Shown here one piece after another: positions 14,628 to 29,528 of a DNA stretch of 64,000 nt. Origin of the DNA: an uncultured Chlorobiaceae bacterium (GTDB taxonomy: Bacteria; Bacteroidota; Ignavibacteria; UBA10030; SZUA-254); the NCBI GenBank assembly GCA_964523395.1, contig CAZFXS010000008.1, forward strand, positions 74,693 to 138,692, read 5' to 3'. The notes under the pieces were generated by a model, which worked only from the letters and a program-made list of their open reading frames with translations, was not told where the DNA came from and searched no databases. Position numbers and translations under genes: made by a program. The stretch's first letter is position 1; each line of letters opens with the position of its first letter.

Positions 14628-16847
14628 TTATCTTAAATGAATCATTTTTCGCACAAACATTTCATTCTCCGTTGTCATCCGATACATATAAATTCCACTG
14701 CCAAATTCTTCCATCGACAAAGTTACAGTATATATATCCGGATTATGTACTTCATCTGTAAGAATTCTTAGCACCCTCCCGAGGATATCTATGATTTCCA
14801 ATTTCACCCTAGTTCTTTTTGAAACAGAATATCGAATTACGGACACAGAGTTAAATGGATTGGGGTAATTTTGTAATAAACTATTTTTTTTAGGTAACCC
14901 AAGAATATTATCAGATAGAATTACCGATTGTGTACCATCAACTAGTTGATATACCCCTCCACCATCGGTACCTGCATAGATATTCCCAGCTACACTCTGG
15001 GAGAAAACGTGGATCTTGGATTGAGCCAGTCCCGTTTTAATTAGTTCCCAAGTATCGCCGCCATCAGTTGATCGGTATGCCCCTGAATCTGATGCTACGA
15101 GAACTCCAATTTTAGAATCAGTCAATAGTGAATAATAGGAAGCGGGAGGAAGAGATTTATCAACTCTTGACCAAGTTAACCCGCTATCGTTCGAACGATA
15201 AATTCCGCCGGTTATCCAGAGATAATAAAAATCTCCAGTGGTGGCAATTAAGCGACCTTGAGAATCAAACGATAAACCGGTAACAATCGAACCAGTGGAA
15301 AACGTGGACACTTGGGTAAATGATACACCATTATTCTGCGATCTATAGATTCCCCGGTTAACATACGTTCCAAAATAAATATCTCCATTATCTCCAAAGC
15401 AAAATGAAGTAATAGGGCCTTCATTCGAAACACGCTTTTCAATCCATGTTAGACCATAATTCGTGGACCGGTAGAATTTTCCACCTGTTTCTGCCCCTAA
15501 AAAAATATCCCCCCATGGGCTTATTGAAATACTCCGCACCCCACCTCCACAACCAAAATTAGATGCACACAAGGAATCTAATTGCCATGTTTCACCATTG
15601 TCGACTGTAGAGTTTGAACCCGAAGTAAGAAACCCAGCAAATACTTTACCCCAAGGATGAGAAGCAAAAGAATTGAGAATATTAGAGGACTGGTCAAAAT
15701 TAAGTGAAATGTCTTCCCATGTAACACCATTGTCGGTAGAACGAAATGATGGACAATTATGCCCGCCGGCAAACAAAACACCATTTGAAGAAGAAGTCAG
15801 CGCATAGATTTCAGCTGAGAGAATTCCCTTAGATTTCTTCATCCATGTAACACCATCGTCGGCTGAGAAATAAATTCCGTCCGAAGAAGAAACATAGACA
15901 TAACCTAAACTATCAGTTGCTATATCATAAGCTAAGTGCGGAAATGGAATGTTTAGCCATGTATCGCCATTATTAATAGATCGACTAATGGAACCATCTC
16001 CTCCGTACTTAATAAGAATTAAAGTTTGGTTTTTTGTTATTCTGAGAAGAGGGGCGAATCCAACGGAAAGGAGACCATTGTTAACGTAATCCCATGTTCC
16101 ACCTTCATCGTTCGACCGTAATACTCCAAAAGGGGGGTAACCGGCAAACAAGTACCCGATATCGTTCTGTACTATATTTGGTATTGTATTGGGAATTGAT
16201 CCTACAAAGGAACTTTCCCAACTCACACCGTCGTCAGTTGAGCGAAGGATATACCCATTGGTTGTTGTTCCAAAAATATTGTCGTGCTGACTTTTAAAAA
16301 TACATTTATTGCCGCCACCTAGAAGATGTTCCCAGGTACTACCGTAGTCTGTAGATCGGAAAACTCCGCTGTCACCTGTTGCTATATACATTCTTCCTTG
16401 ATCATCAAATGATATCAACGAAATAAAATCTAAATTTCTAGGGGCCTCACGGATTATTTCCCAAGAGAGTCCATTATCAGTGGACTGAAGAAGTCCCTCT
16501 GAACCTGTCGTAGACGCCGAACTAGCGTAAATAAATCCATTTGGCCCTATTGTCATGGTTTCGAAAGGTAGGGCTGGATTTCCGAGGTTCACCCATGATT
16601 CTGCATGATCTGAAGAAAAGTACAGTGTACCGTACGAGGCGCGGTCTGCTGGATAAAAATAACCCCCTCGTTTCGCGTATGAAAAAAGTTCGCCATTAGG
16701 TTTTATCTCAATCTGAGTCATTTGACCTCCTTCAGGACCGGGCAACTGCTTCCATTGAAGCTGACTTTGGGCCATGGAAAAGGAAAGAAATGAAAATACT
16801 ATCAAGACTATAATGGTCCCTTGTCCTTCGTAAGTAATGTTAATCAA
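14628..16847 (-). CDS. BNR/Asp-box repeat (sortilin/PSII-stability-factor-like) protein with T9SS C-terminal sorting domain
   Basis: Signal peptide, many S-x-D-x-G-x-T-W Asp-box repeats, and a C-terminal [17 protein letters not shown]...GIYMYRM Por_Secre_tail. Confidence 0.75.
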   Translation of the reverse strand: MINITYEGQGTIIVLIVFSFLSFSMAQSQLQWKQLPGPEGGQMTQIEIKPNGELFSYAKRGGYFYPADRASYGTLYFSSDHAESWVNLGNPALPFETMTIGPNGFIYASSASTTGSEGLLQSTDNGLSWEIIREAPRNLDFISLISFDDQGRMYIATGDSGVFRSTDYGSTWEHLLGGGNKCIFKSQHDNIFGTTTNGYILRSTDDGVSWESSFVGSIPNTIPNIVQNDIGYLFAGYPPFGVLRSNDEGGTWDYVNNGLLSVGFAPLLRITKNQTLILIKYGGDGSISRSINNGDTWLNIPFPHLAYDIATDSLGYVYVSSSDGIYFSADDGVTWMKKSKGILSAEIYALTSSSNGVLFAGGHNCPSFRSTDNGVTWEDISLNFDQSSNILNSFASHPWGKVFAGFLTSGSNSTVDNGETWQLDSLCASNFGCGGGVRSISISPWGDIFLGAETGGKFYRSTNYGLTWIEKRVSNEGPITSFCFGDNGDIYFGTYVNRGIYRSQNNGVSFTQVSTFSTGSIVTGLSFDSQGRLIATTGDFYYLWITGGIYRSNDSGLTWSRVDKSLPPASYYSLLTDSKIGVLVASDSGAYRSTDGGDTWELIKTGLAQSKIHVFSQSVAGNIYAGTDGGGVYQLVDGTQSVILSDNILGLPKKNSLLQNYPNPFNSVSVIRYSVSKRTRVKLEIIDILGRVLRILTDEVHNPDIYTVTLSMEEFGSGIYMYRMTTENEMFVRKMIHLR

Positions 16848-18378: not shown

Positions 18379-19146
18379 TCAGTGCAGAGTTTGTAAATTC
18401 ACTGATGCTATAGAGGGAAGAATTTTCCCCGAAGCACCAAGCAAAACTTCGTCAGCAACATTGCTGAGCTCAGTAGGTTCAATATTAATTTCCACCAGAA
18501 ACGCGCCTTTTCTCTTTGCCAGAAGCGGAAGCGACGCGGCAGGATAGACAACCGACGACGTTCCGACGGAAAAGAAAATTTCCGCCTGTTCCGCCGCTGC
18601 GACACTTTCGTCCCATTGATCGGCCGGAAGCATTTCACCGAACCAAACAACGTCGGGACGGACCAGCCCGTTGCATACACTGCATCTTGGCGCGGTTTCC
18701 ACCCGAAGAATTTCCTCGTTGGCCATGCTTTTGCCGCAATCGATGCAATAATTCCGCATAATATTTCCGTGAAGCTCATGAACGTTCCGGCTTCCCGCGC
18801 GCTGATGGAGGTTATCAATATTCTGCGTAATCACCGTGACCCGTTTGAACTGCGATTGCAGTTGCGCGAGGGCGTAATGTCCCGCGTTGGGTTGAACACT
18901 TTCGATTAATTGTTTCCGGTGCTTGTACCATTCCCACACTAATTCGGGATTTCTGATAAACGCATCAAAGTTTGCAAGCTCCTCGGGTTTAAACTTTTTC
19001 CACAACCCGTCATCGCCGCGGAACGTTGGCACGCCGCTTTCCGCCGACATACCCGCTCCGGTAAACACAACAATGTGTTCCGCTTCCTGCAATGTTGATT
19101 GCAGACACGGTGAGAGTTTTATAATACTATCAGTCACATTTATCAT
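18379..19146 (-). CDS. cobB: NAD-dependent protein deacylase, Sir2 family
   Basis: GAGMSAESGVPTFRG NAD-binding motif, a Zn-binding Cys pair (CxxC...CxxC), and the HG catalytic motif. Confidence 0.9.
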   Translation of the reverse strand: MINVTDSIIKLSPCLQSTLQEAEHIVVFTGAGMSAESGVPTFRGDDGLWKKFKPEELANFDAFIRNPELVWEWYKHRKQLIESVQPNAGHYALAQLQSQFKRVTVITQNIDNLHQRAGSRNVHELHGNIMRNYCIDCGKSMANEEILRVETAPRCSVCNGLVRPDVVWFGEMLPADQWDESVAAAEQAEIFFSVGTSSVVYPAASLPLLAKRKGAFLVEINIEPTELSNVADEVLLGASGKILPSIASVNLQTLH

Positions 19147-19148
19147 TG

Positions 19149-21569
19149 CTACGGACGAAGTTCAAGTTTATCCCAGCTGCTTTTACGGATTTCATTCCAG
19201 TCGATTGTGACCGAAAGATATCCCCCGTTGCGCCACAACGGGACTTGGTCATCATAATGTTTCTGTAACGGTTGGCCAGACTGTCCCGACGTAATAACAG
19301 TTGCCGCTTCTAACGGATGTGAAAGATCAACAATCTGCCGCATCGACGGACCCACCGAAACCGAATATGGAAGAGTAAATTTATACTCGGTTTTCATTAA
19401 CGTTGTCCCGCCGCCTTGCACAGGAAACGGCCCGACATTAAAAATATTATCAAGCGGTTTACGTGAACCAAACGGATGCTTGAAAGTTACTGTGTGCATC
19501 GTGCCCCATTGCCATGTTTTCATTTCAGAACCGAAAGATTTCTTCAGTTCTTCAATCGCGTCGGCAAGACTTTTCCGCAGCATCTCATCCTTTGTCTCGA
19601 TGGCTTCCGTATGAATATTATCAAACCAGAGTGAATTTTCGGATGCCAGCAACGAACCCGTTACACGATACGGAATTGCGCCAAAAAACACAAAGTCTTT
19701 AAAAAGATCGGGGCCGAGCTCATCTTCGTAAATATTGGAGAGCAGTTTCACAAAAAATGAATTAAATATTGTTGTCGCAACATCATGTTGCGCGAAGCGG
19801 TAATCCCAATTCCGCAAATACGTAATCGCATCTGCCACCGGCTGTTCCTGTTCGGCGTTATCCCTGTATGCATTCAGCAAGACGGAAGTAATATCATGCG
19901 CATACGGAGAAGTTATATCCATCTGAAACTGACGGAAATCCTCCGGTGCAAATTTTTCGCTTGACTGAAGCAATTGCCGGATTCTTGTAATACGCGACGG
20001 CGGCTCCCACAGCGTTGATAAATAGTAGGGATACGATGCATCAGCAATCATCTGGTTCGAACAGGCAATAAATCCTTCAGGAGGATTTTTGAGATGCGGC
20101 AGTTTATCAAACGGTACAAACCCGTTCCACTCGTTATCTGCCGATGCATTTCGCTGGGGCAACATTGCGTTATAATTTCCACGAATGGGGACACGCCCTG
20201 CAGTCCAGTACGCAATATTTCCATCCACATCAGCGTAGACAACCGATTGCCCCGGAACGGTGAGCTCTTTTAATCCCCGCTCAAAATCCTTCGGCGTCGA
20301 AGCTTTATTCATGAGGGAAAAACCGTACAGTTCATCGCTGATGTCAAGCCCGGTCCAGCGCATAGCAACCGGAGAGCGGTGCTGAAGCGAGTCCTGATGT
20401 TTGTGACGGGGATGAACGTCGTTAATGACAGGGCCGTGCTTAGTAGATCGAGTCTGAATAACAACGCTGTCCGAGGATTTAATGTAAATTGTTTCTTCAC
20501 GAAGAGTAAATGGCTCTGAATTTCCATGATAAAGATAATGATTGTTCTTTGCCGTATCTTCCTGCTCTATATAGAAGTCCGCATCATCGAGCATTGCGTT
20601 GGTTAAGCCCCACGCAATCCGGTCGTTGTGGCCTATAACAACAACAGGCATTCCCGGCAGTGAGACACCGGCAACATTCCACCCCTGCGTTGAAAGGTGA
20701 AGAAGATACCATCGCGCCGGCGCCGGCATCGCAAGGTGAGGATCATTTGCCAGCATCGGTTTTCCTGTCAGCGACTTTGTGGAATCAACAGCCCAGGCGT
20801 TGCTTCCTGCCTCCAGTGAACCAAGATTGAACAAGCCGCGATATAATCTGACGGCATCCATAAACTCACGCGCATCTGCCGTTGATTTCGTTCCTTTTAT
20901 TGGCGGAACCGTGACAGCAATGGAATCAGGGACTGTGGGAATGATTTCACGAAGTAATTCCGGAGAAACCTTTTCGGCAATCTCACCGTACGTGAGATCG
21001 GTCCACCAGGCAAGATTCAGCTCCCATGCGATAAGTCTCCCAATGAGAATACTATGTTCCGGTTTCCATGGTTCGGGATTGTATTTCAGCATATCAAATT
21101 CAATCGGATACTTTCCCTGGTGTGTCGCAATAAATGCATTCACTCCTTCCGCATAATCCTCAAGCATCTGTTTTGATTCGGGATGCATATTCGCCTTAAT
21201 CGCAGTGCTGACTTCTTTTATTCCAATTGTACGGAACAGGATATCAATATCCAGCGTGGGCTCACCAAGAATTTCCGATAATCTGCCTTCTCCCGCCCGC
21301 CGCATCAGATCCATCTGCCAGAGGCGGTCCTGCGCATGCACGTATCCCGTTGCCAACATCAAATCATGAGTATCTTCCGCCTCAATATGCGGAACACCAT
21401 ACTCATCTCTGTAAATAGTAACCGGCGAGTGAAGTCCTGCGATGTTTACCGAACCGTTGTATTGCGGAAATGATTTTGTGACAAGGTGATAGAGAAAAAC
21501 CGAAACAGCGATCGCGATGATGAGAAGGGAAAAGCTAATACCAATGAAAGCTTTTGTAAATTTTGACAA
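19149..21569 (-). CDS. penicillin acylase family protein (peptidase S45, Ntn-hydrolase)
   Basis: 806 aa with an N-terminal TM/signal segment. Family conservation runs throughout, including a SNAW-type N-terminal nucleophile region (GSNAWAVD). Confidence 0.85.
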   Translation of the reverse strand: MSKFTKAFIGISFSLLIIAIAVSVFLYHLVTKSFPQYNGSVNIAGLHSPVTIYRDEYGVPHIEAEDTHDLMLATGYVHAQDRLWQMDLMRRAGEGRLSEILGEPTLDIDILFRTIGIKEVSTAIKANMHPESKQMLEDYAEGVNAFIATHQGKYPIEFDMLKYNPEPWKPEHSILIGRLIAWELNLAWWTDLTYGEIAEKVSPELLREIIPTVPDSIAVTVPPIKGTKSTADAREFMDAVRLYRGLFNLGSLEAGSNAWAVDSTKSLTGKPMLANDPHLAMPAPARWYLLHLSTQGWNVAGVSLPGMPVVVIGHNDRIAWGLTNAMLDDADFYIEQEDTAKNNHYLYHGNSEPFTLREETIYIKSSDSVVIQTRSTKHGPVINDVHPRHKHQDSLQHRSPVAMRWTGLDISDELYGFSLMNKASTPKDFERGLKELTVPGQSVVYADVDGNIAYWTAGRVPIRGNYNAMLPQRNASADNEWNGFVPFDKLPHLKNPPEGFIACSNQMIADASYPYYLSTLWEPPSRITRIRQLLQSSEKFAPEDFRQFQMDITSPYAHDITSVLLNAYRDNAEQEQPVADAITYLRNWDYRFAQHDVATTIFNSFFVKLLSNIYEDELGPDLFKDFVFFGAIPYRVTGSLLASENSLWFDNIHTEAIETKDEMLRKSLADAIEELKKSFGSEMKTWQWGTMHTVTFKHPFGSRKPLDNIFNVGPFPVQGGGTTLMKTEYKFTLPYSVSVGPSMRQIVDLSHPLEAATVITSGQSGQPLQKHYDDQVPLWRNGGYLSVTIDWNEIRKSSWDKLELRP

Positions 21570-21608: not shown

Positions 21609-21638
21609 AAAATCCCGTCACGGTGAATCGTGACGGGA
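21609..21638 (-). terminator. Rho-independent terminator-like hairpin downstream of the FadL-like gene
   Basis: TCCCGTCACG-gtgaat-CGTGACGGGA forms a 10-bp stem. On the minus strand it is followed by a T-tract (A-tract at 21605-21612 on plus). Confidence 0.55.
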
Positions 21639-21674
21639 CAATATACATCTTTGGTGTTATTCTTGCAAAAAGAC

Positions 21675-23108
21675 TTAGAAGCGGTAGGAAACTGTAGAAA
21701 TCAGATTATGTGTTTTGATGTTTTCCACTTTCGTGAATGTTCCGTCATAAATCTGGCGGAAGGTATCCCATGTGCCGTACGCATATCCGAGGTCAACGGC
21801 AACGGAATTTTCAATAAGGAAACCGATACCGCCCGTGATATACTTTTGCGCGAAGTCTGACGGATCGCCATCATACGGAGAGGGGAGATACGCGTACCCG
21901 CCGCGAAGACGTACATCGCTGTTCTGTATCGCGAACTCGGCACCGAACCGGAGGTTAACCGTCGGCCGGTATATTTCTTTTATATCGAGATTATAACTTA
22001 ACAACCGTGCGTTCGCGTTACGAAATTCCATTTGTGTCCAATCTGTATATTCGATATCGCCGGCGAGTGTAAGGTTTTCAATTCCAAAAGAAAGTCCGCC
22101 CGACAAGACATACGGCGTGGTAACATCGTACTCGTTTCCTGTTCCTGGATCACCGTCAACAGGATCATTCCTAACATCACCGTTATCAAACACACTTTGT
22201 GCATCAGATGAATATGTTTCCCGCACAGTTATCCACGAGGGTGTTTTTAACGCAAGACCGAGTTTTCCCTGAGGACTGAATTTATAGAGTAAACCAAATT
22301 TCGCTGTGAATCCGCTAAGGTCTGCATCAATAATATCCCGCACGGTAAGTTCTGAGAAATCAAAGGGAAACGCATTATACCGGTCTGCGAGATCCTGTTC
22401 CATGTATGTCCGGCTGTACGAATACGAGCCTGTGATAAAATTAAGAGTTACGCCGAGGTAAAGATTACGCGCAGCTTCTGCGGCACCAGAGAACGAAACG
22501 TAATTTAGTCCGCCGCCTTCAAGAAGTTTTCCGCTCTGCGTGAGGCTGTCTCTGATCGGACTGATAAATGTTCCGGCATTCGTATCTACGCGTGCAAGCT
22601 CAAGTGCTTCTGCGCGTGTAAGATCCGGAGGATACGGTTGACCATCCGGTGCCCAGACTTGGATAATGCTGCTCAGCGGATTAAATCCTTTGAATGAAAG
22701 TCCGCTCGTGTAATCAGCCTGCTTTCCGTAACCGATACCAAGAACAAGACTTCCCCGGGTCGCGGGAACAACATACGCAAGCCCGAAATTATTGAGACTT
22801 GTCGAGCTGTTGGTAAACGACTGGGAACTGTTCATGAAGGAACTATTATTATTGTGGGAAACGTGTGAAAGCCCAAACGACAGTTCGTTTAATTCAAGCT
22901 GAGCAAGGCCGGCGGGATTCCAGTACGATCCGGAAAAATCATTGGCAAGCGCTGTATAGGCTGTTCCCATTCCGAGGGAGCGGGCCCCGACTCCCAACCC
23001 AAGTGTTGAATACCTTAAGGCATCTTCGGGAAATTGCGCTGAAGTCAGAGAAGTTATTGCCAGAATTGTAATGAAGAGAAATGTTATTCGTGTCGCTATC
23101 GTTTTCAT
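21675..23108 (-). CDS. outer-membrane beta-barrel transport protein, FadL/OmpP1/TodX-like (PorV-like also possible)
   Basis: Signal peptide, an N-terminal hatch-like region (LGLGVGARSLGMGTAYTALAND...GSYWNPAGLAQ), a C-terminal aromatic beta-barrel terminus (VSYRF), and alternating beta-strand periodicity. Confidence 0.55.
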   Translation of the reverse strand: MKTIATRITFLFITILAITSLTSAQFPEDALRYSTLGLGVGARSLGMGTAYTALANDFSGSYWNPAGLAQLELNELSFGLSHVSHNNNSSFMNSSQSFTNSSTSLNNFGLAYVVPATRGSLVLGIGYGKQADYTSGLSFKGFNPLSSIIQVWAPDGQPYPPDLTRAEALELARVDTNAGTFISPIRDSLTQSGKLLEGGGLNYVSFSGAAEAARNLYLGVTLNFITGSYSYSRTYMEQDLADRYNAFPFDFSELTVRDIIDADLSGFTAKFGLLYKFSPQGKLGLALKTPSWITVRETYSSDAQSVFDNGDVRNDPVDGDPGTGNEYDVTTPYVLSGGLSFGIENLTLAGDIEYTDWTQMEFRNANARLLSYNLDIKEIYRPTVNLRFGAEFAIQNSDVRLRGGYAYLPSPYDGDPSDFAQKYITGGIGFLIENSVAVDLGYAYGTWDTFRQIYDGTFTKVENIKTHNLISTVSYRF

Positions 23109-23148
23109 AAATATTCATCAATAAATAATAGTTACAAGATCATACCTG

Positions 23149-24186
23149 TTACGGGCGCCCACCGCGTGTACTGCCGCCGCGGCTGGTTCCTGAATTTGAC
23201 GGCGTTGAACTGCCGCCGCGATTTGACGGAGCCGGCTGGTTTTGCGGTGCCGGCGGAGGTGTGTACGTTGGTGCTTTGTCGCGGGAAGAACCCGCGTCGC
23301 GCGTTCCCGAATCTTTTGTCGGTGGCGCGTACGTCGGCGGCGCTGAAGCTGACCTGTCGCCGCTGCTTCCCTGCTGTGTCGCGGAACCGCGCTGACGATA
23401 CACACGTGATGTGTTCGTGCGTGTTCCTGAACTGCGGGAACTGCCTTCACTTTTTCTTGCCGCGGATCCGCTGCGTGAAACTGTTCCGCGCGAGCTTCCG
23501 TTATCACGCGATCCGTTAATTACTGCCGGATCGGTATTCGCCCGCTGGGAAGAACTATTTGCGCCGCCGATGCGTGAACCTGTCGGAAGCGTTTGCCCGC
23601 TGACGTCAATTCTGTCAACGGAAGGATTGCGTGAACCGGCATCCATTGTCGATCTGTCGCCACGGGTAGTACCGATATCTCTTCCGCCGCGCTGAACCGG
23701 CTTTCCGTTGTACGTGTACCAATAGTTCGGATAGTATCCGTAATACGGATAATACGAAGAGTAATATCCTCCATAAGGGTAGTAACTGACATACGGACTA
23801 CCGCACCACCATGGGTCATAATAATTGTAGCTGTAATACCACGGATCGTATGCGCGGTAATAATGATACGCCCAGGGGTTCGCGTACTCTACCGCGAACG
23901 CGTATGAAGGCCAGTAGGTTGAAGGATAATAATAGGAAAAACCAACACGGGTCCGGTTTTCCCAATCCTGATCATCGTTTGTGTAATATCCGCCATCATC
24001 ATCGTCGTACTCCTGCTCATTTCCGTTGTACGATTCGTTGTCATCTTTCTCGTCATCAGCAGATGAATACTCCTGATTGCGCCGTTCATCTCTCGTAGCT
24101 CCAATCTGTGTATAACATCCGGAGAGGATTATTGATGCCACAATCAGAAGCGACATCAGAACGATAAGTTGTAGTTTCTGTTTCAT
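23149..24186 (-). CDS. low-complexity Tyr/Trp/Pro-rich lipoprotein (hypothetical)
   Basis: Lipobox (LSGC), then an acidic D/E-rich segment, then a roughly 90-aa region with about 40% Tyr plus Trp/Pro, then a long S/R/G/T-rich tail. No recognisable family hallmarks. Confidence 0.55.
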   Translation of the reverse strand: MKQKLQLIVLMSLLIVASIILSGCYTQIGATRDERRNQEYSSADDEKDDNESYNGNEQEYDDDDGGYYTNDDQDWENRTRVGFSYYYPSTYWPSYAFAVEYANPWAYHYYRAYDPWYYSYNYYDPWWCGSPYVSYYPYGGYYSSYYPYYGYYPNYWYTYNGKPVQRGGRDIGTTRGDRSTMDAGSRNPSVDRIDVSGQTLPTGSRIGGANSSSQRANTDPAVINGSRDNGSSRGTVSRSGSAARKSEGSSRSSGTRTNTSRVYRQRGSATQQGSSGDRSASAPPTYAPPTKDSGTRDAGSSRDKAPTYTPPPAPQNQPAPSNRGGSSTPSNSGTSRGGSTRGGRP

Positions 24187-24371
24187 ACGGGCCTGCACTT
24201 TCTTCTAAAATTTCCGCTCTTTTATTAGCAATACCAATGCCAACTCTTATAATTTTCCTACTCGAATTTAGGCATATATTAGCATGAAAACAAGACCCCT
24301 CGTGATATTAGAGGGCTAATGGTGTGTAATGATGTAGACAGGGGGGGTGTAAACGTTGGGATTTCAGCACA

Positions 24372-25154
24372 TTAGAGGGGTTGAATGAACTCGACGGTGA
24401 CCGTCCGGTTTCCCACAGATATGGTCTGTTGGTTGCGGAAAATGTCCTTCAAGTTTACTCCCATAGTTAATCCCGCCCCAAAGGAGGCACGAAGCCCAAC
24501 ATTTAAGTACCCTCTACCGCGACCCAGTGCATCACTGTTTGTATCATTGAGGGCAAGGTCATACTCAGCTATAGCTGAAACAATCGAGCCGATTGTTTTT
24601 TCGATTCCAACAAAAATATCCGGATCGGTATCATCATCGCCGCGTTCAAGGCTATAATTTATTCCGCCATGGAAACTAAGAAATCCCGCCGCATCATAAT
24701 TCTTGCTCGCCACAGCATACAATCCTCTTGATTTGATTGTGTAACGGTCCGGGTTGTTGAGGTATTCTTCTTTACCCTGACTGTCAAACCCAAGTGCAAT
24801 CGCAGGAAATGCGGTTGACTCTTCAATAATCCGTAACCTGATCGCAAAGCCGGGACTGTTATTCCACGATGGGCTTCCGGTTCCAATAATACCAACGCCT
24901 CCGTACGAAATTCCGGCAAGAAGCCGGTTAAACAATCCGATGTTCACTCCCATAAGAAGCCCACCCGATTGGTAGAAATCCAGATCGAGGGCAAGCGTGT
25001 TATTGGGAAGCATTCCGGCAGTGGGAAGATCTATAAGATACCGCGGTTCATAATTTGCCGAACCTCCTGCTGAACCTTGCGCCAACATACATTCCATGTA
25101 TAATAGACATGCCGCGGAAACTATTATCCTGCCGATAAGCCTTTTCGTATTCAT
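24372..25154 (-). CDS. hypothetical outer-membrane beta-barrel protein
   Basis: Signal peptide (MNTKRLIGRIIVSAACLL...), then amphipathic beta-strand periodicity and Gly/aromatic-rich strands. The start was chosen at the internal Met. Confidence 0.45.
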   Translation of the reverse strand: MNTKRLIGRIIVSAACLLYMECMLAQGSAGGSANYEPRYLIDLPTAGMLPNNTLALDLDFYQSGGLLMGVNIGLFNRLLAGISYGGVGIIGTGSPSWNNSPGFAIRLRIIEESTAFPAIALGFDSQGKEEYLNNPDRYTIKSRGLYAVASKNYDAAGFLSFHGGINYSLERGDDDTDPDIFVGIEKTIGSIVSAIAEYDLALNDTNSDALGRGRGYLNVGLRASFGAGLTMGVNLKDIFRNQQTISVGNRTVTVEFIQPL

Positions 25155-25267
25155 GGATATGAATATACGCAAATGATTCTTTTGCGGCAACGATGACATT
25201 ACATTGCATTTTTCTTCAAAAGAATCTACATTAAAATGAACTACCACAAGCATATTCTTCAGACCTT

Positions 25268-26779
25268 ATGAACCAACCCCTGACCATCGGTGAGTTACGA
25301 AAAAGCGGTTATCATGTTCACACCGTTAAAGATGAAATCCGGAATAACCTCATCGCGAAAATCAACCGAAAGGAAACGCTCTTTCCCGGCATCATTGGAT
25401 TCGGGAAAACAGTTATCCCTGCAATCATCAACGCGGTACTCGCCAAGCATGATATCATGTTATTGGGATTACGCGGGCAGGCAAAATCACGAATCGTCCG
25501 CCAGCTTCCTTCATTGCTGGATGAATATATTCCGATCATCAAAGGATGTGAGATTAATGATAACCCGTATCATCCCGTTTGCAAACGATGCACCGATTTA
25601 GTAAAAGAGAATGGAGACAATACTGAGATTGAGTGGCTTCACCGCGATGCAAGACTTGGTGAAAAATTAGCAACGCCTGACGTCACCATTGCCGATTTAA
25701 TCGGCGACATTGACCCGATCAAAGCCGCATCGCAACGGTTACACTATTCTCATGAAGGCGCGATTCACTTCGGCATCATTCCTCGTACAAACCGCGGCAT
25801 CTTCGCCATCAACGAACTTCCCGATCTTCAGCCTCGCATACAAGTAGGACTCTTTAATATCATGCAGGAAAAAGACATTCAGATCAGGGGATTCAATGTA
25901 CGGATCCCTCTCGATATCATGATTGTCTTCACCGCGAACCCCGAAGATTATACCAATCGCGGTAGCATTATCACTCCGCTCAAGGACCGGATAGATTCAC
26001 AAATCTTCACCCATTATCCGAAGACCATTGAAGACGCCATTCACATCACACAGCAGGAAGCGCATATTGAACGTGATGGAAAGGACATCATCATCCCCCA
26101 TTACTTCAAAGAGATTATAGAGCAGATTGCGTTCGAAGCGCGCAAGAGCGAGTTTGTTGATCAGAAATCGGGCGTCAGTGCGCGCATGACGATTGCCGCG
26201 CTGGAAAATCTCGTAAGCAACGCCGAACGCCGCGCGATTTTATTAGGCGACAGGCAAATTGTCCCCCGTGTTTGCGATCTGGCTTCCGTGCTTCCCGGAA
26301 TGACCGGTAAAATAGAGCTTGTATTTGAAGGAGAACAGGAAGGTCCGCTAAAAGTAGGAAAAGCATTGATCGGAAAAGCTGTGCGCGATGTCTTCAAAAA
26401 ATATTTTCCAGACCCGTTGCAGCGACGCCCTGTACGCGGACAATCACAGGAACAGCGCCAGCAACCCGAAGACACGGAGTATGGCAAAATTATTTCGTGG
26501 TTCGAATCGGGAAACAAAATTGAAATTTCTGATGATATGACCATCGATGAGTATATTCATGAGTTACAGAAAGTAAAGAACCTCTCCGATATTACAACAC
26601 GTCACATGAAAATCGCTTCCAACAATAAATATGAGCTTGCCTCTGCGATGGAATTTGTCCTGGACGGGCTGCACCAATTTTCAAAAATCGCAAAGGAGGA
26701 AGCCGAGCACCGCGTGGAATATAAAGACCTTGTGGGAAGTATTTTTACAGGAAGAGGGAAAGGGGAGGAAGATGATTGA
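25268..26779 (+). CDS. AAA+ ATPase, Mg-chelatase ChlI/MoxR-like
   Basis: ChlI-like N-terminal block FPGIIG...VLL.GLRGQAKS (degenerate Walker A) and a Walker B/sensor region (GIFAINELPDL...DIMIVFTANPED). It is paired with a downstream VWA protein. Confidence 0.65.
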   Translation: MNQPLTIGELRKSGYHVHTVKDEIRNNLIAKINRKETLFPGIIGFGKTVIPAIINAVLAKHDIMLLGLRGQAKSRIVRQLPSLLDEYIPIIKGCEINDNPYHPVCKRCTDLVKENGDNTEIEWLHRDARLGEKLATPDVTIADLIGDIDPIKAASQRLHYSHEGAIHFGIIPRTNRGIFAINELPDLQPRIQVGLFNIMQEKDIQIRGFNVRIPLDIMIVFTANPEDYTNRGSIITPLKDRIDSQIFTHYPKTIEDAIHITQQEAHIERDGKDIIIPHYFKEIIEQIAFEARKSEFVDQKSGVSARMTIAALENLVSNAERRAILLGDRQIVPRVCDLASVLPGMTGKIELVFEGEQEGPLKVGKALIGKAVRDVFKKYFPDPLQRRPVRGQSQEQRQQPEDTEYGKIISWFESGNKIEISDDMTIDEYIHELQKVKNLSDITTRHMKIASNNKYELASAMEFVLDGLHQFSKIAKEEAEHRVEYKDLVGSIFTGRGKGEEDD

Positions 26780-26854: not shown

Positions 26855-27955
26855 ATGAGATATATTTACCAAAAATGGACCCCGCAATCCCAGACTGATG
26901 AGCAACGACTCGAACAGTTGACGTCGTTGTTCAGCTATTTGCTTCTGCAAACAAACGGTGATGTTGAAGAGGCAATGGAATGGCTCCGCCAACTTGCCGA
27001 AGAGCATGGTATCTTCGATGAAAACCTGACGATGGATGATCTCATCGATAAATTGCGGGAAATGGGAATCATTGAGGAGATTAACGACACTCCGACATTA
27101 ACCACTAAAGGCCTTCAACGTATCCGCCAGGACGCACTGAAGGAAATTTTCACGTCACTTAAAAAAGGAGGCGTCGGTTCGCACGATACACCGCAAACAG
27201 GAACGGGCGTTGAGCGGTTAAGCGAAACAAAGAAGTGGGCACTCGGCGATGCGCCGACAAATATTGACCTCACATCAACTCTTACCAACGCGTTCAAACG
27301 CGGCGGCATCGATGAGTTCTCACTGAAAGAAGAAGACCTCGAAGTCTACGAAACCGAACATACCACTTCGTGCGCCACAATCCTGATGCTCGATATCAGC
27401 CACAGCATGATTCTGTACGGTGAGGACCGTATTACTCCGGCAAAACAGGTCGCACTTGCTCTTTCCGAACTTATCATGATGAAATACCCGAAAGATTATC
27501 TCGCCCTTGTTGTCTTCGGCAATGAAGCAAGTCTGATGAGTCTCAATGAATTACCTTTCCTTTCCGTAGGACCTTACCATACGAACACGCGAGCGGGATT
27601 ACAGTTGGCGCGGAATCTTTTAAGAAGAAAACGGACGGCAAACAAGCAGATATTCATGATCACCGACGGGAAACCTTCCGCGATGTTCGATGATAACGGG
27701 AGGTTGTACAAAAATTCCTTTGGACTTGACCCGCGAATAGTAAATAAAACACTCGATGAAGCGGTTGCCTGCCGTCGCGAGAAGATTACCATCAGCACAT
27801 TCATGGTCGCGCGCGACCCCTACCTGATTAACTTCGTGGAAGAGCTGACTAAAGCCAACCAAGGACGCGCGTATTATACCGGCTTACAAAATCTTGGTGA
27901 GTTTATTTTTGTGGATTACATCCGGAACAGAAGGAAGAAGTTTGGGACGATGTGA
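26855..27955 (+). CDS. VWA domain-containing protein (CoxE-like)
   Basis: The C-terminal half has MIDAS-type motifs (LDISHSM...T...ITDG). It is partnered with an AAA+ ATPase, as in the ChlI/ChlD, CoxD/CoxE and NorQ/NorD systems. Confidence 0.7.
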   Translation: MRYIYQKWTPQSQTDEQRLEQLTSLFSYLLLQTNGDVEEAMEWLRQLAEEHGIFDENLTMDDLIDKLREMGIIEEINDTPTLTTKGLQRIRQDALKEIFTSLKKGGVGSHDTPQTGTGVERLSETKKWALGDAPTNIDLTSTLTNAFKRGGIDEFSLKEEDLEVYETEHTTSCATILMLDISHSMILYGEDRITPAKQVALALSELIMMKYPKDYLALVVFGNEASLMSLNELPFLSVGPYHTNTRAGLQLARNLLRRKRTANKQIFMITDGKPSAMFDDNGRLYKNSFGLDPRIVNKTLDEAVACRREKITISTFMVARDPYLINFVEELTKANQGRAYYTGLQNLGEFIFVDYIRNRRKKFGTM

Positions 27956-28010: not shown

Positions 28011-29528
28011 TTAATCTTTCCAGACATAAACACCCCCATTCTGATTTATTCTTTTTAGCCCAACTAACAATCTTTTATTTCCCTTGCTCACATCTACTAC
28101 ATTTGAAAAACCATGAGGCAAACCCATACTGACATCAACCCATTTACATTGCTCACACTTTGAACTGTATACTCCTAAACTCGATGATAGAATTGATTCA
28201 GAAGAATTGAATTGATTAAATTCCAAACCATTGTAACCATCGGCGCTGTCATTTACGGTAATGCGTGTCCAGGAAACACCGTTGTTTTTTGAGACGTAAA
28301 AACCTTGAAAGTCGACACTAGCATATACAACATTCGAATCTGACGGATCAACCTGAACTAATGTAACCACAGATTCGGTTTGACCTAATCCTGTAACACT
28401 CCAATTTGTCCCTCCATCTGTACTCTTAAGTAACAACCCTATCCCCGGAGTTCCGACATAGATAATATTTGGATTCCATGGATTGATAGCTATGCTTACA
28501 ACGCCCTCTCTTAAATAATTATTATTTGACGCAAGGTCGATCCATGTCGTTCCGGCATCAGTACTTTTGTATAAAGACCCTCCAAAAAAACCTCCGGTTC
28601 CGGCAAAAAGGATTGACGGGTTGTTTGGATCAATAGCCAAGCTTTGTAACCGAGTTTCAGGATCGATAAAGATATTACTCGCACTTTCAAACCATGATAC
28701 TCCGCCATCAATACTTTTATACAACGAAAAGGGAATCGTGTACATTGTGTCAGGATGTATAGGATTTAAAATAATATCAAGATAACTCCCGCCGATAAGC
28801 ATGGTATCCCATGAAACTCCCTGGTCAACAGACCTAAAAAGTTTACCGGGAATCCCTTCACTAAAATTATATTGAGAACCGACGAATATTACATTTGAAT
28901 CTGATGGATGTGTCTTAATTGAGACTATGGTTTCTTCTGTCAAACCAACCGACTCCCACCGACCCGTCGAAAACGTGCCGTTAATTTCAGTTCTTATCCA
29001 ATACCCTTTCCCGGGAATTATGGAATCCGTTATTTGATATCCTTTGTTGGGAGTATACGAATACAATACTGTGTGTTCTAGCATGTCAGGCAAAGGAATA
29101 ATACTATCGGTAGATATACTTTGCAAAAATGAGGAAACCATATTCCAGCCATTACCAACAGAGTAGGCTTCAACAAGTGGTTGTGTACCATTAATGAGGA
29201 AGGAATCATTGGAGGGAAACTTTATCCAGTAGCTCTTACCATACTGGAGTGTATCACTTTTCTTGTAGCCCCCATCAAACTCCCATGCCTGAGAAATTGC
29301 TGTTGGAAAAAGTGTGGTTACGCGCGAATCAGGGACTAGAAGCGGAATGGAAACAATATTCCATCCCGAATCAATCAATACATACATCGAGTCGAGAACT
29401 GTGCCTGATGATAAAACACGATTCTCAAGATCTCCACCAACGGCTGACATTACTTCTCTATGGGCAAAGGAACCATTAAACAGAAAAATCAAAGCTGCGG
29501 ACAAGCCGAATGAAAAATAAGGTTTCAT
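28011..29528 (-). CDS. BNR/Asp-box repeat secreted protein (glycosyl-hydrolase/sortilin-like beta-propeller)
   Basis: Signal peptide and multiple S-x-D-x-G-x-T/S-W repeats (SVDQGVSW, SIDGGVSW, STDAGTTW, STDGGTNW, SKNNGVSW). No T9SS tail was detected. Confidence 0.7.
   Translation of the reverse strand: MKPYFSFGLSAALIFLFNGSFAHREVMSAVGGDLENRVLSSGTVLDSMYVLIDSGWNIVSIPLLVPDSRVTTLFPTAISQAWEFDGGYKKSDTLQYGKSYWIKFPSNDSFLINGTQPLVEAYSVGNGWNMVSSFLQSISTDSIIPLPDMLEHTVLYSYTPNKGYQITDSIIPGKGYWIRTEINGTFSTGRWESVGLTEETIVSIKTHPSDSNVIFVGSQYNFSEGIPGKLFRSVDQGVSWDTMLIGGSYLDIILNPIHPDTMYTIPFSLYKSIDGGVSWFESASNIFIDPETRLQSLAIDPNNPSILFAGTGGFFGGSLYKSTDAGTTWIDLASNNNYLREGVVSIAINPWNPNIIYVGTPGIGLLLKSTDGGTNWSVTGLGQTESVVTLVQVDPSDSNVVYASVDFQGFYVSKNNGVSWTRITVNDSADGYNGLEFNQFNSSESILSSSLGVYSSKCEQCKWVDVSMGLPHGFSNVVDVSKGNKRLLVGLKRINQNGGVYVWKD

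Follow-up and report, generated by a model that had tools for sequence, protein, structure and literature searches.

Three genes for outer-membrane components lie side by side on the minus strand of the window, the whole 64-kb stretch of DNA analysed here. The first in the direction of reading is a small outer-membrane beta-barrel gene (24372..25154), which encodes 260 aa from the ATG at 25154; the mechanically called ORF, which begins at an ATG at 25253 and would give 293 aa, is probably too long. Its product has a signal peptide cleaved before a conserved AQGSAG, a conserved N-terminal segment (EPRYLIDLPTAG) and then a 12-14-strand barrel. NCBI gives relatives of this protein the label 'YjbH domain-containing', and for some of them a precomputed PF06082 match exists, while the protein in the window reaches 18.8 bits against Pfam PF06082 (cut-off 24) and covers profile positions 10-99 of 658.

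The last of the three is a FadL/Toluene_X-family outer-membrane barrel gene (21675..23108, minus strand; 477 aa), which starts 40 nt past the lipoprotein stop codon. The earlier suggestion that such a barrel gene flanks the lipoprotein gene on the same strand held, with the protein passing the Pfam Toluene_X/FadL profile (PF03349, 1.8e-14; 53.5 bits vs. a cut-off of 29.7). The hatch motif (GLG...NPAG) is conserved, the C-terminus carries the outer-membrane protein signature Y-R-F, and there is a conserved N-terminal extension of ~10 residues (QFPEDALRYS) relative to E. coli FadL. Among NCBIfam models the best match is BamG (78.7 bits, 4e-22), below its cut-off of 250 bits, and the N-terminal region matches PorV_fam (53.1 bits, 3.6e-14), again below the cut-off of 90 bits. 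With a profile of the family, the best match in the PDB is E. coli FadL (2.6e-4) followed by CymD, and the BamG chains deposited there are matched neither by the sequence nor by the profile. In one source, a homologue goes under the name 'long-subunit fatty acid transport protein'. The stretch of lipoprotein and FadL-like genes is closed by a strong intrinsic terminator (21612..21639, minus strand) with an 11-bp stem, seven G-C pairs and a T-run, as the sequence-only reading had anticipated.

Between the two barrels lies a lipoprotein gene (23149-24186, minus strand) of 345 aa counted from its ATG, the mechanical ORF starting at a GTG at 24198. A classical lipoprotein signal peptide, MKQKLQLIVLMSLLIVASIILSGC, forms the N-terminus and together with the lipobox (MKQKLQLIVLMSLLIVASIILSG followed by C) occupies 24115..24186; the first residue after cleavage, predicted to be lipidated, is Cys24, and a conserved Y-T-Q comes next. 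In a family alignment of 28 sequences G23, C24, and T26 are invariant and Y25 is nearly so. C-Y-T-[QERKD] is present in 99 of the 101 distant family members scored, and the 14 of these that fall outside the strict lipobox pattern still read GCYT. The first acidic residues near the lipidated Cys of the window protein are found only at +9 and +10.

The mature protein had been described as a chain of three compositional modules, and residue composition and net charge bear this out. The acidic block (residues 25-80; 23947..24114, minus strand) contains 21% Asp and 12% Glu and has a net charge of -13; its charge is negative in 46/46 first-round homologues (-3 to -14), with a median of -7 among distant members. 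The aromatic block (residues 81-165; 23692..23946, minus strand) is 35% Tyr, 7% Trp, and 12% Pro, with Pro at 8-16% throughout and short Pro-free stretches within its aromatic-rich segment. The Tyr-rich segment reported earlier is indeed rich (29 Tyr or 38%, 6 Trp and 9 Pro), but it spans 76 aa (residues 86-161) instead of roughly 90. This block holds the best-conserved motif of the family, R-x-R-V-G-F-S-Y-Y-Y-P-S-x-Y-W-P-S-Y-A-F ... D-P-W ... Y-D-P-W-W-C-G-T-P-Y, the core of which reads GFSYYYPSYYWPSYAF...DPWWCGTPY across members with a Tyr content of 22-35%, as well as a single conserved Cys (C128). Summed over this block, the Wimley-White interfacial free energy is -26 kcal/mol, a strongly favourable value, whereas the sums of the other two blocks are positive.

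The remainder is a basic disordered tail (residues 166-345 plus the stop codon; 23149..23691, minus strand) composed of 19% Ser, 15% Gly, 13% Arg, 11% Thr, and 9% Pro, with a net charge of +15. Lys is almost nil there despite the abundance of Arg, against a genome background of 6.0% Lys and 5.3% Arg. Across the family the composition of the tail is conserved while its sequence varies, apart from the short motifs R-x-F-G-S-T-R-G, L-P-x-G, and P-x-Y-x-P-P, the last of which corresponds to the PTYAPP and PTYTPPP motifs previously picked out in this tail. The C-terminus reads S-R-G-G-S-T-R-G-G-R-P, the tail holds four RGG motifs, and family tails end in GGRR or GGRP. The Tyr richness of the lipoprotein is no chance feature: its maximum Tyr fraction in an 80-aa window is 0.38, compared with 0.12 for the next best of 71 open frames of at least 150 aa in the 64-kb window, and background Tyr is 3.3%. 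AlphaFold, run with the family alignment, returned a mean pLDDT of 49 and a pTM of 0.20, with only the signal peptide modelled confidently, the aromatic block mostly below 50 and the tail below 50 almost throughout. Intrinsic disorder over the whole mature length is thus a well-supported prediction.

It had been stated that the protein shows no recognisable family hallmarks. This is correct for curated libraries, as no relative was found in Pfam, NCBIfam, or the PDB, but profile searching reveals a large conserved family. The word-indexed search returned 46 homologues, and the exhaustive profile search returned 878 cluster representatives at E<=1e-3, 428 at 1e-10, and 98 at 1e-30. These matches are nearly all full-length (about 290-390 aa), and of the top 150 almost every one aligns from end to end. 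The common layout is a lipobox with C-Y-T-Q, then the acidic block, the aromatic block and an Arg/Ser/Gly/Thr/Pro tail; the three-block design is seen in 46/46 first-round homologues and 97/101 of the distant members scored. By sequence comparison, a large and previously unannotated lipoprotein family of Ignavibacteria-type bacteria (FCB group) is well supported.

The gene order 12-14-strand barrel, lipoprotein, FadL-type barrel is maintained in every sufficiently long related locus among about 30 fetched, which come from 25 GTDB species genomes and further metagenome contigs, and it is unchanged in the three loci (3/3) reached from the small-barrel side. Outer neighbours vary between loci, and the conserved unit contains no catabolic genes. 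The most distant locus, L004, retains the module though all of its outer neighbours differ, and the lipoprotein gene is tandemly duplicated there. Barrel identity is 43-76% across loci (34% for the FadL-like barrel of L004), lipoprotein identity is 32-41% over alignments spanning most of its length, and 14-36 nt (median 29) separate the lipoprotein gene from the FadL-like gene. The proposal that the three genes form a unit of outer-membrane components is therefore strengthened by their strictly conserved order, and there is good support for an outer-membrane gene module, hitherto unannotated, that Ignavibacteria-type bacteria share class-wide.

The spacer upstream of the lipoprotein gene, 165-380 nt long across loci, contains regulatory features which the sequence-only reading overlooked, namely a sigma-54 promoter and tandem upstream dyads. 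The -24/-12 element of sigma-54 (RpoN) type, TGGCATTGGTATTGC (TGGCAT-N5-TTGC; 24228..24242, minus strand), ends 41 nt before the lipoprotein ATG and is the sole match to TGGCAY-N5-TTGY within the 64-kb window. Exactly one match occurs at the equivalent position in 26 loci, with a second match elsewhere in L023 alone; the element is also present in the three loci reached from the small-barrel side, and L004 has the variant AGGCCT-N5-TTGC. The -12 part is TTGT, not the canonical TTGC, in 21/28 loci. Neither the window nor any of the fetched loci contains an rpoN gene or a GAFTGA-type activator. Further upstream are two dyads, the first of which (TGTGCTGAAATCCCAACG; 24354..24371, minus strand; family consensus TGT-N12-ACA/G) is a putative enhancer-binding-protein site beginning 1 nt past the small-barrel stop codon. 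The second (TGTCTACATCATTACACA; 24323..24340, minus strand) is an exact TGT-N12-ACA; it begins 31 bp downstream of the start of the first, and 98 bp separate it from the -24 element further downstream. Such a pair with at most one mismatch in total occurs in 23/28 loci vs. 4/5600 shuffled spacers, with a dyad-to-dyad spacing of 31 bp in 18 loci, 32 in seven and 30 in one, and a distance to the -24 element of 86-119 bp (66 bp in the outlier L004).

The spacer alignment also reveals a conserved block between the dyads and the sigma-54 element, CTTGTTTTC...TAAATTCG (24263..24294, minus strand), which may be a second, sigma-70-type promoter or a DNA-bending site. It reads TTGTTT-N17-TAAATT here and a perfect TTGACA-N17-TAGATT in one subclade; -35/-10 scoring across all loci was no better than for shuffles. 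The presence of a 7-G homopolymer in this spacer, noted earlier, is confirmed, with its coordinates shifted by two bases from 24343-24349 to 24341-24347 (C7 on the coding strand). It is one of two G/C runs of at least 7 in the window, and its place is notable, as it takes up most of the 13 nt separating the two conserved enhancer-like dyads, which otherwise keep a constant spacing of 30-32 bp. The tract is missing from all other loci, L006 alone having a C5 run at a different position, which gives no support to its proposed role as an expression modulator and little to phase variation. Considering the conserved sigma-54 promoter and tandem dyads, the lipoprotein and FadL-like genes appear to form their own regulated transcription unit, and with the small barrel gene lying upstream of this promoter the three genes are probably not a single simple operon.

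We tentatively favour, at somewhat less than an even chance, an enhancer-controlled lipoprotein/barrel module in which a sticky Tyr/Arg chain would act at the envelope or cell surface. Conserved DNA motifs suggest that the lipoprotein and FadL-like genes are co-transcribed from the sigma-54 promoter at 24228-24242 to the terminator at 21612-21639, the small barrel gene probably being expressed separately. Such a promoter would require an enhancer-binding activator, probably acting on the two TGT-N12-ACA dyads ~100 bp upstream, and the pair would therefore be switched on by a signal instead of constitutively. Sigma-54 regulons are centred on the cell exterior, lipoproteins included (PMC3162934). 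The lipoprotein would be exported by Sec, lipidated, sorted to the outer membrane and held there by its partner barrel(s), with docking and interface-seeking falling to the lipidated N-terminus, which is invariant, and to the aromatic core, whose sequence is conserved. The actual work would be done by the tail, which as a flexible, polycationic and Tyr-compatible 'sticky brush' could self-associate through Tyr-Arg cation-pi contacts and acidic-to-basic block pairing, and could bind anionic envelope or matrix polymers such as LPS, exopolysaccharide, eDNA, or peptidoglycan. In this way the envelope or cell surface may acquire a cohesive or adhesive layer that can be induced. Surface-exported Bacteroidota lipoproteins are marked by acidic residues directly after the Cys (PMC12578637), and with none there the lipoprotein could face the periplasm.

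Known systems offer partial parallels. The closest is found in Bacteroidota, where a FadL-type barrel anchors a surface lipoprotein in BamG-BamH and BamG2-BamH2 (PMC12611786; PMC12578637), the latter pair forming a putative operon (PMC12578637). Here too an FCB-group bacterium has the barrel gene next to a lipoprotein gene, and the barrel matches BamG best among NCBIfam models and carries the N-terminal extension; the lipidated N-terminus is the most invariant part of the lipoprotein, which fits a barrel groove binding an N-terminal tail as in BamG-BamH. However, the barrel scores far below the BamG cut-off without a sequence match to solved BamG chains, the lipoprotein is predicted to be wholly disordered and Tyr/Arg-rich whereas BamH is a folded two-domain protein, and the module adds an obligatory small barrel and a sigma-54-type promoter. 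PorV and PorQ, which carry or anchor surface proteins in type IX secretion (T9SS), share the barrel superfamily and the PorV_fam match, but the score is below the cut-off, the lipoprotein lacks a T9SS C-terminal domain and the conserved unit lacks T9SS genes. The favoured reading is tempered by these sub-threshold scores and by transporter FadL being the closest solved relative in sequence. The organism does encode a T9SS cargo, a Por_Secre_tail protein at 14628-16847.

In the enterobacterial RcsF-OmpA/OmpC/OmpF complexes, the disordered, positively charged linker of a lipoprotein threads a barrel. The likeness is a disordered basic segment coupled to outer-membrane barrels, and a disordered chain could traverse a narrow one; RcsF differs in being small with a folded signalling domain and in using general porins not encoded beside it, and the module here shows no signs of signalling. 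In FUS-family prion-like/RGG proteins and the adhesive proteins of mussels and sandcastle worms, composition is linked to cation-pi self-association, coacervation and wet adhesion. The likeness is in manner of working only, with Tyr-rich and Arg/Gly/Ser-rich RGG blocks in one disordered chain, a strong preference for Arg over Lys and oppositely charged blocks in one polymer, but there is no homology and our protein is extracytoplasmic and lipid-anchored, with sequence motifs conserved beyond composition. The YjbEFGH and GfcABCD operons (exopolysaccharide and group-4 capsule in E. coli) encode a barrel and a lipoprotein along with a secreted protein of low complexity, and the label of the small-barrel relatives recalls them; the window protein differs in its sub-threshold score, in having 260 aa vs. 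about 700, and in the lack of YjbF/YjbG-like genes.

Another possibility, which we consider doubtful, is a periplasmic tether or spacer, with the lipoprotein in the inner leaflet of the outer membrane as a non-covalent analogue of Lpp, Pal, or the OmpA linker. The aromatic block would rest on the membrane interface or barrel girdles, as its interfacial energy allows, and the long polycationic, Pro-containing tail would extend into the periplasm and bind anionic peptidoglycan. By the published criterion the protein carries no Bacteroidota-type export signal next to its Cys (PMC12578637), and the P-x-Y-x-P-P motifs and ~180-residue disordered Arg-rich tail also suit a spacer. A simple tether would need neither two dedicated, strictly co-inherited barrels nor an enhancer-dependent promoter, and Pfam and NCBIfam contain no recognisable peptidoglycan-binding domain for it.

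Substrate capture is unlikely. The FadL-like channel would import hydrophobic or aromatic compounds that the Tyr/Trp lipoprotein concentrates at its mouth, loosely as SusD serves SusC. Sigma-54-regulated FadL-family channels do occur in aromatic-degradation operons (TbuX, XylN), and the Toluene_X assignment, the retained NPA of the hatch, FadL and CymD as best solved relatives, the homologue named as a fatty acid transporter and the promoter type all agree with import. However, the FadL channels known so far function without lipoprotein partners, the conserved unit lacks catabolic genes amid variable outer neighbours, and the 180-residue polycationic tail is left unexplained. The N-terminal extension recalls non-transporting BamG and not transporters (PMC12578637).

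It is improbable that the pair is a conditional BAM accessory, an alternative BamG/BamH-type pair joining BamA under particular conditions. BamG as best NCBIfam match and the BamG-like extension (PMC12578637) suit this, as does the precedent of BamG2-BamH2, which is unexpressed in rich medium (PMC12578637; PMC12611786). Against it stand the score far below the BamG cut-off, the absence of a PDB match to BamG chains, and the predicted full disorder of the partner in contrast to the folded two-domain BamH; nor does BAM include anything corresponding to the small barrel that is always adjacent here.

The sequence-only reading had likened the lipoprotein to adhesive, amyloid-forming, or phase-separating proteins, a suggestion drawn from composition, and amyloid is the least supported of the three. 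Secretion of a Tyr-rich protein via a FapF-like small barrel into cross-beta fibres like those of curli or Fap (FapC/FapF; CsgA/CsgG) is very improbable: short Pro-free stretches would permit it, but the small barrel resembles FapF only at the level of fold class (6% identity, with KdgM, NanC, and autotransporter barrels matching as well), the candidate subunit is lipid-anchored and Pro-rich without CsgA/FapC-type imperfect repeats, AlphaFold predicts no beta-solenoid or other beta structure, and the conserved unit lacks nucleator, chaperone, or other accessory genes.

Finally, that the low-complexity ORF is an artefact, or that an overlapping frame such as 23118-23507 is the real gene, is effectively refuted by the conservation pattern of the family: the exact protein is missing from a 15-billion-sequence collection which holds same-contig neighbours, and long alternative-frame ORFs occur at the locus, but those ORFs are likewise missing from the collection, an RBS-like block and the conserved promoter lie directly upstream of the lipoprotein gene, hundreds of full-length homologues share the lipobox and motifs with an alignment continuing through the tail to the conserved C-terminus, and frame 0 alone stays open end-to-end in all loci, the other frames being erratic.

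An open reading frame at 23149-24186 on the minus strand, which the sequence-only reading had picked out as a lipobox protein, is present and encodes 345 aa counted from its ATG. Mechanically the frame opens at GTG 24198, which falls within a conserved RBS-like GAAAGTG block, and the homologues start with Met-Lys matching the ATG. The N-terminus (MKQKLQLIVLMSLLIVASIILSG followed by the Cys) is a standard lipoprotein signal, and when judged by a basic n-region, a hydrophobic h-region and a lipobox of the form [LVI][ASTVI][GAS]-C with an invariant Cys, the arrangement MKQK, LQLIVLMSLLIVASIIL, S-G-C predicts a lipoprotein processed as an SPII substrate. G23 and C24 are invariant in the 28 sequences aligned and G-C-Y-T is retained in essentially all 115 full-length distant members. 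It had also been considered that an overlapping ORF in another frame, 23118-23507, might be the real gene; this candidate is ruled out because the lipoprotein frame (frame 0) alone is open end to end at every locus and conservation reaches the lipoprotein C-terminus, while open stretches in the other five frames are erratic across loci, as expected of stop-poor low-complexity coding sequence. The exact lipoprotein sequence, with three starts tried, is absent from a collection of 15 billion proteins, as are six alternative-frame ORFs overlapping it, whereas the proteins of both flanking barrel genes and of a nearby AAA+ gene on the same 213,653-bp NCBI contig are present. This suggests that gene finders skip the lipoprotein gene, and the source annotation probably missed it.

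Computed composition bears out the three modules described earlier: an acidic block (residues 25-80, net charge -13), an aromatic block (residues 81-165; 35% Tyr, 7% Trp and 12% Pro) and a basic tail (residues 166-345; 19% Ser, 15% Gly, 13% Arg, 11% Thr and 9% Pro, net charge +15). The Tyr-rich segment originally quoted is indeed 38% Tyr, but it is 76 residues long rather than about 90. The Tyr content of the lipoprotein is far outside the local background, its richest 80-residue window reaching 38% Tyr; the second of the 71 open frames compared reaches 12%, and the mean is 3.3%. The basicity of the tail comes from Arg (9-20%) with Lys almost nil, in a genome in which Lys (6.0%) exceeds Arg (5.3%). 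The aromatic block has a strongly favorable membrane-interface energy (-26 kcal/mol).

A word-indexed search returned 46 homologues, which range from 214 to 398 aa and carry no Pfam domain. Most are unnamed, and the remainder are labeled “hypothetical protein” and come from Ignavibacteriae/Ignavibacteriales MAGs. Exhaustive comparison of a lipoprotein profile with 1.84 billion cluster representatives gave 878 matches at E<=1e-3, 428 at <=1e-10 and 98 at <=1e-30, and nearly all of the top 150 align end to end at ~290-390 aa, the shorter ones being fragments. The difference between 46 and 878 illustrates how gene finders and word-based homology searches under-detect genes of this kind. The family alignment indicates more than a common composition. 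It starts with the invariant Gly-Cys followed by Tyr-Thr-Gln, continues through a well conserved aromatic core (R-x-R-V-G-F-S-Y-Y-Y-P-S-x-Y-W-P-S-Y-A-F-x-x-A-Y-x-D-P-W-x-Y-D-x-Y-W-x-Y-D-P-W-W-C-G-T-P-Y) and short tail motifs (R-x-F-G-S-T-R-G, L-P-x-G and P-x-Y-x-P-P), and ends in a conserved S-R-G-G-S-T-R-G-G-R-P, with GGRR or GGRP in distant members. Every one of the 46 first-round homologues keeps the three-block design of charge and composition, as do 97 of the 101 distant members scored. The initial view that the protein has no family hallmarks thus holds for Pfam, NCBIfam and PDB sequences, where it has no match, but not beyond them, as it belongs to a large, conserved and unannotated family. 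This is a new lipoprotein family without detectable relatives and with an extreme Tyr/Arg block design, comprising hundreds of 50%-identity clusters in a widespread environmental lineage. For this family we found no Pfam or NCBIfam entry, solved relative or paper; a literature search on Tyr-rich disordered lipoproteins returned nothing relevant. AlphaFold, given the family alignment, modeled the signal-peptide helix alone with confidence (mean pLDDT 49, pTM 0.20), and on this model intrinsic disorder is the best description of the mature lipoprotein, conserved aromatic core included, at least in monomeric form.

The genes on either side are barrel genes, as originally described: a small barrel upstream (24372-25154, minus strand) and a FadL-like barrel downstream (21675-23108, minus strand). 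By way of the lipoprotein, loci were fetched from metagenome contigs and 25 GTDB species genomes, and the order small barrel, lipoprotein, FadL-like barrel is found at every locus long enough to show it. As a control for circularity, we started from three small-barrel homologues chosen independently of the lipoprotein, and each of the three has, next to the small barrel, a gene for a Tyr-rich lipoprotein with G-C-Y-T-Q and then the FadL-like gene. Locus L004, the most distant, keeps the module with outer neighbors that are all different. It also has a tandem duplicate of the lipoprotein, a shorter paralogue (6866-7516, plus strand, ~208 aa) placed after the main lipoprotein and ahead of the FadL-like gene, with a G-C-Y-T-V start, an acidic/Tyr-rich block and an Arg/Gly/Ser-rich tail ending in GGRK; locus L005 carries the same duplication. 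Identity to the window is 43-76% for the barrels (34% for the FadL-like protein of L004) and 32-41% for the lipoprotein over alignments spanning most of its length, a low value typical of a disordered protein constrained in composition and motifs. Genome matches are labeled Ignavibacteria, Bacteroidota or “Chlorobiaceae” MAGs, with the exception of one weak, non-syntenic match in a “Phycisphaeraceae” MAG (L030, 6001-6192; tblastn, 34% identity over lipoprotein residues 65-135, flanking barrels absent), which is probably compositional. Strict genetic linkage therefore joins the lipoprotein to two outer-membrane barrels, and we regard it as close to certain that gene, family and module are real. 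Modules that pair an outer-membrane barrel with a lipoprotein are already known; the obligatory second barrel and the predicted enhancer-dependent promoter are new here.

That promoter lies between the small-barrel and lipoprotein genes, in a spacer of 164-256 nt at most loci and 315-381 nt at two, with a conserved architecture. The sequence-only reading missed both the conserved promoter and the dyads that accompany it. Sigma-54 promoters are defined by a -24 GG and a -12 GC at fixed spacing (TGGCAC-N5-TTGCW), and TGGCATTGGTATTGC at 24228-24242 is the sole TGGCAY-N5-TTGY match in the 64 kb. The element lies ~25-60 nt upstream of the lipoprotein start codon at most loci, and 26 loci have one match at the corresponding position, L023 alone having a second one elsewhere; it is present too in the three loci chosen via the small barrel. 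As a sigma-54 element it carries the caveat that its -12 part reads TTGT in 21 of 28 loci. Upstream activator sites are expected about 80-150 bp from such a promoter, and two TGT-N12-ACA(G) dyads are found 86-119 bp upstream of the -24 element, starting directly after the small-barrel stop codon in most loci. Their spacing is 31 bp in 18 loci, 32 bp in seven and 30 bp in one, equal to three helical turns, and a dyad pair with at most one mismatch in total occurs in 23 of 28 loci vs. 4 of 5,600 shuffled spacers. Read from sequence, the layout is that of a classical enhancer-dependent promoter with tandem activator sites, the dyads being putative binding sites, and sigma-54 control of the lipoprotein is likely. 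TGT-N12-ACA is also the published palindrome recognized by PpsR/CrtJ, proteins with the same Fis-type helix-turn-helix as sigma-54 activators, a likeness that we treat as analogy only and not as identification.

A sigma-54 promoter presupposes rpoN and a GAFTGA-type AAA+ activator somewhere in the genome; neither the window nor any of the loci fetched encodes a GAFTGA protein, and a literature search on sigma-54 in Ignavibacteria returned nothing relevant. Divergent from the small barrel is a gene pair encoding an AAA+ protein (25268-26779, plus strand), MoxR/Mg-chelatase-like with a weak Sigma54_activat match, and a VWA protein (26855-27955, plus strand; VWA_2, with homologues also matching Rv0959_3rd). 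The AAA+ protein was rejected as the sigma-54 activator, having weak AAA matches, no GAFTGA and a VWA partner (MoxR type) and being missing from many loci that retain the promoter. Of the related loci that extend far enough upstream, about half have the pair in synteny and the rest lack it, and its link to the module is consequently loose.

The gap between the lipoprotein and FadL-like genes is short (14-36 nt across loci, 40 nt in the window) and the strong terminator noted after the FadL-like gene is indeed there at 21639-21612; the two genes therefore probably form one sigma-54-dependent bicistron ending at that terminator. No known RNA family was found in the region, and a sub-threshold ncS54 match falls on the terminator. 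The sigma-54 promoter is downstream of the small-barrel gene. The hairpin at 24297-24315 was rejected as a terminator between the small barrel and the lipoprotein, as it is no better than shuffles (z = -1.4), and transcription may thus read through from the small barrel into the lipoprotein unit. A conserved block between the dyads and the sigma-54 element (24263-24294, minus strand; noted also in the spacers of L015, L018, L019, L024, L026, L027 and L028) reads TTGTTT-N17-TAAATT in the window and is a perfect TTGACA-N17-TAGATT in one subclade. As a -35/-10 pair it is no better than shuffles over all loci; a bending site or an additional promoter of sigma-70 type, preceding the sigma-54 one, are both possible readings of it. 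The G homopolymer that had been proposed to modulate expression is real, but lies at 24341-24347, two bases from where it had been placed. The tract is not conserved across loci, so it is not a family feature, and its role as a conserved phase-variation switch is rejected. In the window this C7/G7 run occupies the 13-nt gap between the dyads, and a change in its length would alter their otherwise fixed phasing.

Sigma-54 regulons are centered on the cell exterior (PMC3162934). Our leading reading, to which we would give slightly less than an even chance, is that the lipoprotein is an inducible, barrel-associated, sticky disordered protein whose role is to build, or else to modify, an adhesive or cohesive layer at the surface or envelope; a surface-adhesive mechanism taken alone is rather unlikely. 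The lipoprotein would go to the outer membrane and work with its neighboring barrels, a partnership whose best precedent comes from the same superphylum. The module fits an emerging theme of FCB-group FadL-type barrels acting as lipoprotein holders and not as transporters. Conservation at the sequence level makes the aromatic core and the lipidated start, C-Y-T-Q, the natural docking candidates, and the tail, which is conserved in composition but not in sequence, Arg-rich, Lys-poor and furnished with RGG motifs, would be the working part, a flexible polycationic brush. In FUS-type and adhesive proteins, disordered chains rich in Tyr and Arg are linked to self-association and the binding of anionic polymers. 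Such a chain beside an acidic block could here self-associate through cation-pi and electrostatic contacts and bind anionic polymers.

The strongest rival, though unlikely, is that the lipoprotein faces the periplasm as a tether to peptidoglycan. In Bacteroidota, lipoproteins destined for the surface carry an export signal of at least two acidic residues adjoining the lipidated Cys on its C-terminal side (PMC12578637). The family instead reads C-Y-T-Q-[LIV]-G-x-T-R-[DE]-E, its first acidic residues standing at +9 and +10 and followed by the long acidic block, in a class, the Ignavibacteria, for which the export rule is not established. The absence of acidic residues directly after the Cys favors a tether, which however leaves the dedicated barrels and the promoter unexplained. 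A bolder form of the surface-layer reading, less probable again than the tether, is that a lipid-anchored, extracytoplasmic “Tyr block + RGG block” protein is held or exported by the two barrels and condenses into an adhesive coat, the sigma-54 enhancer switching this gel-like, cohesive coat on. The composition of eukaryotic condensate-forming and adhesive proteins is here joined to a bacterial lipid anchor, and if the coat reading is true the module would give bacteria a surface equivalent of the phase-separating and wet-adhesive proteins of eukaryotes and would represent an envelope system of a new kind. Being compact, with three genes and a defined, clearly readable promoter of the predicted enhancer-dependent type, the module also offers a handle on the role of fully disordered lipoproteins in the bacterial envelope.

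The lipoprotein could otherwise be a capture accessory for a FadL-type uptake channel, a reading slightly less likely than the coat. The barrel is transporter-like in sequence: it passes PF03349 (FadL/Toluene_X) at 53.5 bits (cut-off 29.7, E 1.8e-14), a family defined structurally by a GLG...NPA hatch and a 14-stranded barrel with a lateral opening. As a single sequence it has no match in the PDB, and a profile of 18 orthologues finds weak matches to FadL and CymD only, the E. coli FadL chains at 2.6e-4. N64-P65-A66-G67 is invariant across the FadL-like family, and the hatch motif aligns to FadL residues 10-50 in a segment that is weak at 3.4 bits. Sigma-54 control would also suit a capture accessory, but the tail would go unexplained. 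The PorV/PorQ subfamily cut-off (NF033709, 90 bits) is not reached, with 53.1 bits in the N-terminal region only; PorV is likewise a FadL homologue and has been proposed to bind and shuttle substrates (PMC12578637). We call the window barrel a distinct branch of the FadL superfamily whose nearest solved relative by sequence is FadL.

More doubtful is a conditional BAM accessory pair resembling BamG/BamH. Compared with FadL, BamG is extended at its N-terminus by ~10-12 conserved residues (PMC12578637), reported to block its lateral opening, and the window barrel appears to resemble it in having about 10 extra N-terminal residues within residues 25-43, highly conserved as QFPEDALR(L/Y)S; 19 mature residues precede GLG here vs. 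nine in E. coli FadL, although the alignment segment anchoring this count is weak. The extension fits such a pair; however, the BamG equivalog cut-off (NF053685, 250 bits) is not reached at 78.7 bits, and neither sequence nor profile matches a solved BamG chain in the PDB. BamG binds BamA and a partner, BamH, which is a folded surface lipoprotein, unlike the predicted disordered lipoprotein adjacent to the window barrel.

A Fap- or curli-like amyloid system is highly improbable, its single point in favor being the fold-class match of the small barrel. This protein is modeled confidently as a beta-barrel (pLDDT 83, pTM 0.76) and, as a sequence, has no match in the PDB. It does not reach the YjbH/GfcD cut-off (PF06082, 18.8 bits vs. 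24), the match covering positions 10-99 of a 658-position profile for a protein of 260 aa, and PF06082 is precomputed for some of its homologues. It most likely starts at ATG 25154, since its homologues, 245-265 aa long, begin at the corresponding position; the version in the protein collection (24372-25253, ATG 25253, 293 aa) probably has 33 codons too many at its start. Amyloid subunits such as CsgA and FapC consist of tandem imperfect repeats forming a beta-solenoid and are secreted without a lipid anchor. Against this, the lipoprotein has a lipobox and an aromatic block with 8-16% Pro, the family alignment contains no such repeats, and the AlphaFold model contains no beta structure. That the lipoprotein ORF is an artefact is effectively excluded by its conservation.

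Beyond the module terminator lie genes for a penicillin-amidase-family (Ntn hydrolase) protein (19149-21569, minus strand) and a SIR2 protein (18379-19146, minus strand), which follow the module in many but not all loci and give no sign of belonging to it. The surroundings in the window otherwise comprise housekeeping genes and a type IX secretion system (T9SS) cargo protein. The lipoprotein, lacking a C-terminal sorting domain, was rejected as cargo of this system. Two BNR/Sortilin-repeat proteins are encoded on the minus strand (14628-16847 and 28011-29528), and the first of these bears a C-terminal Por_Secre_tail sorting domain, which marks the organism as a member of the FCB group with type IX secretion.
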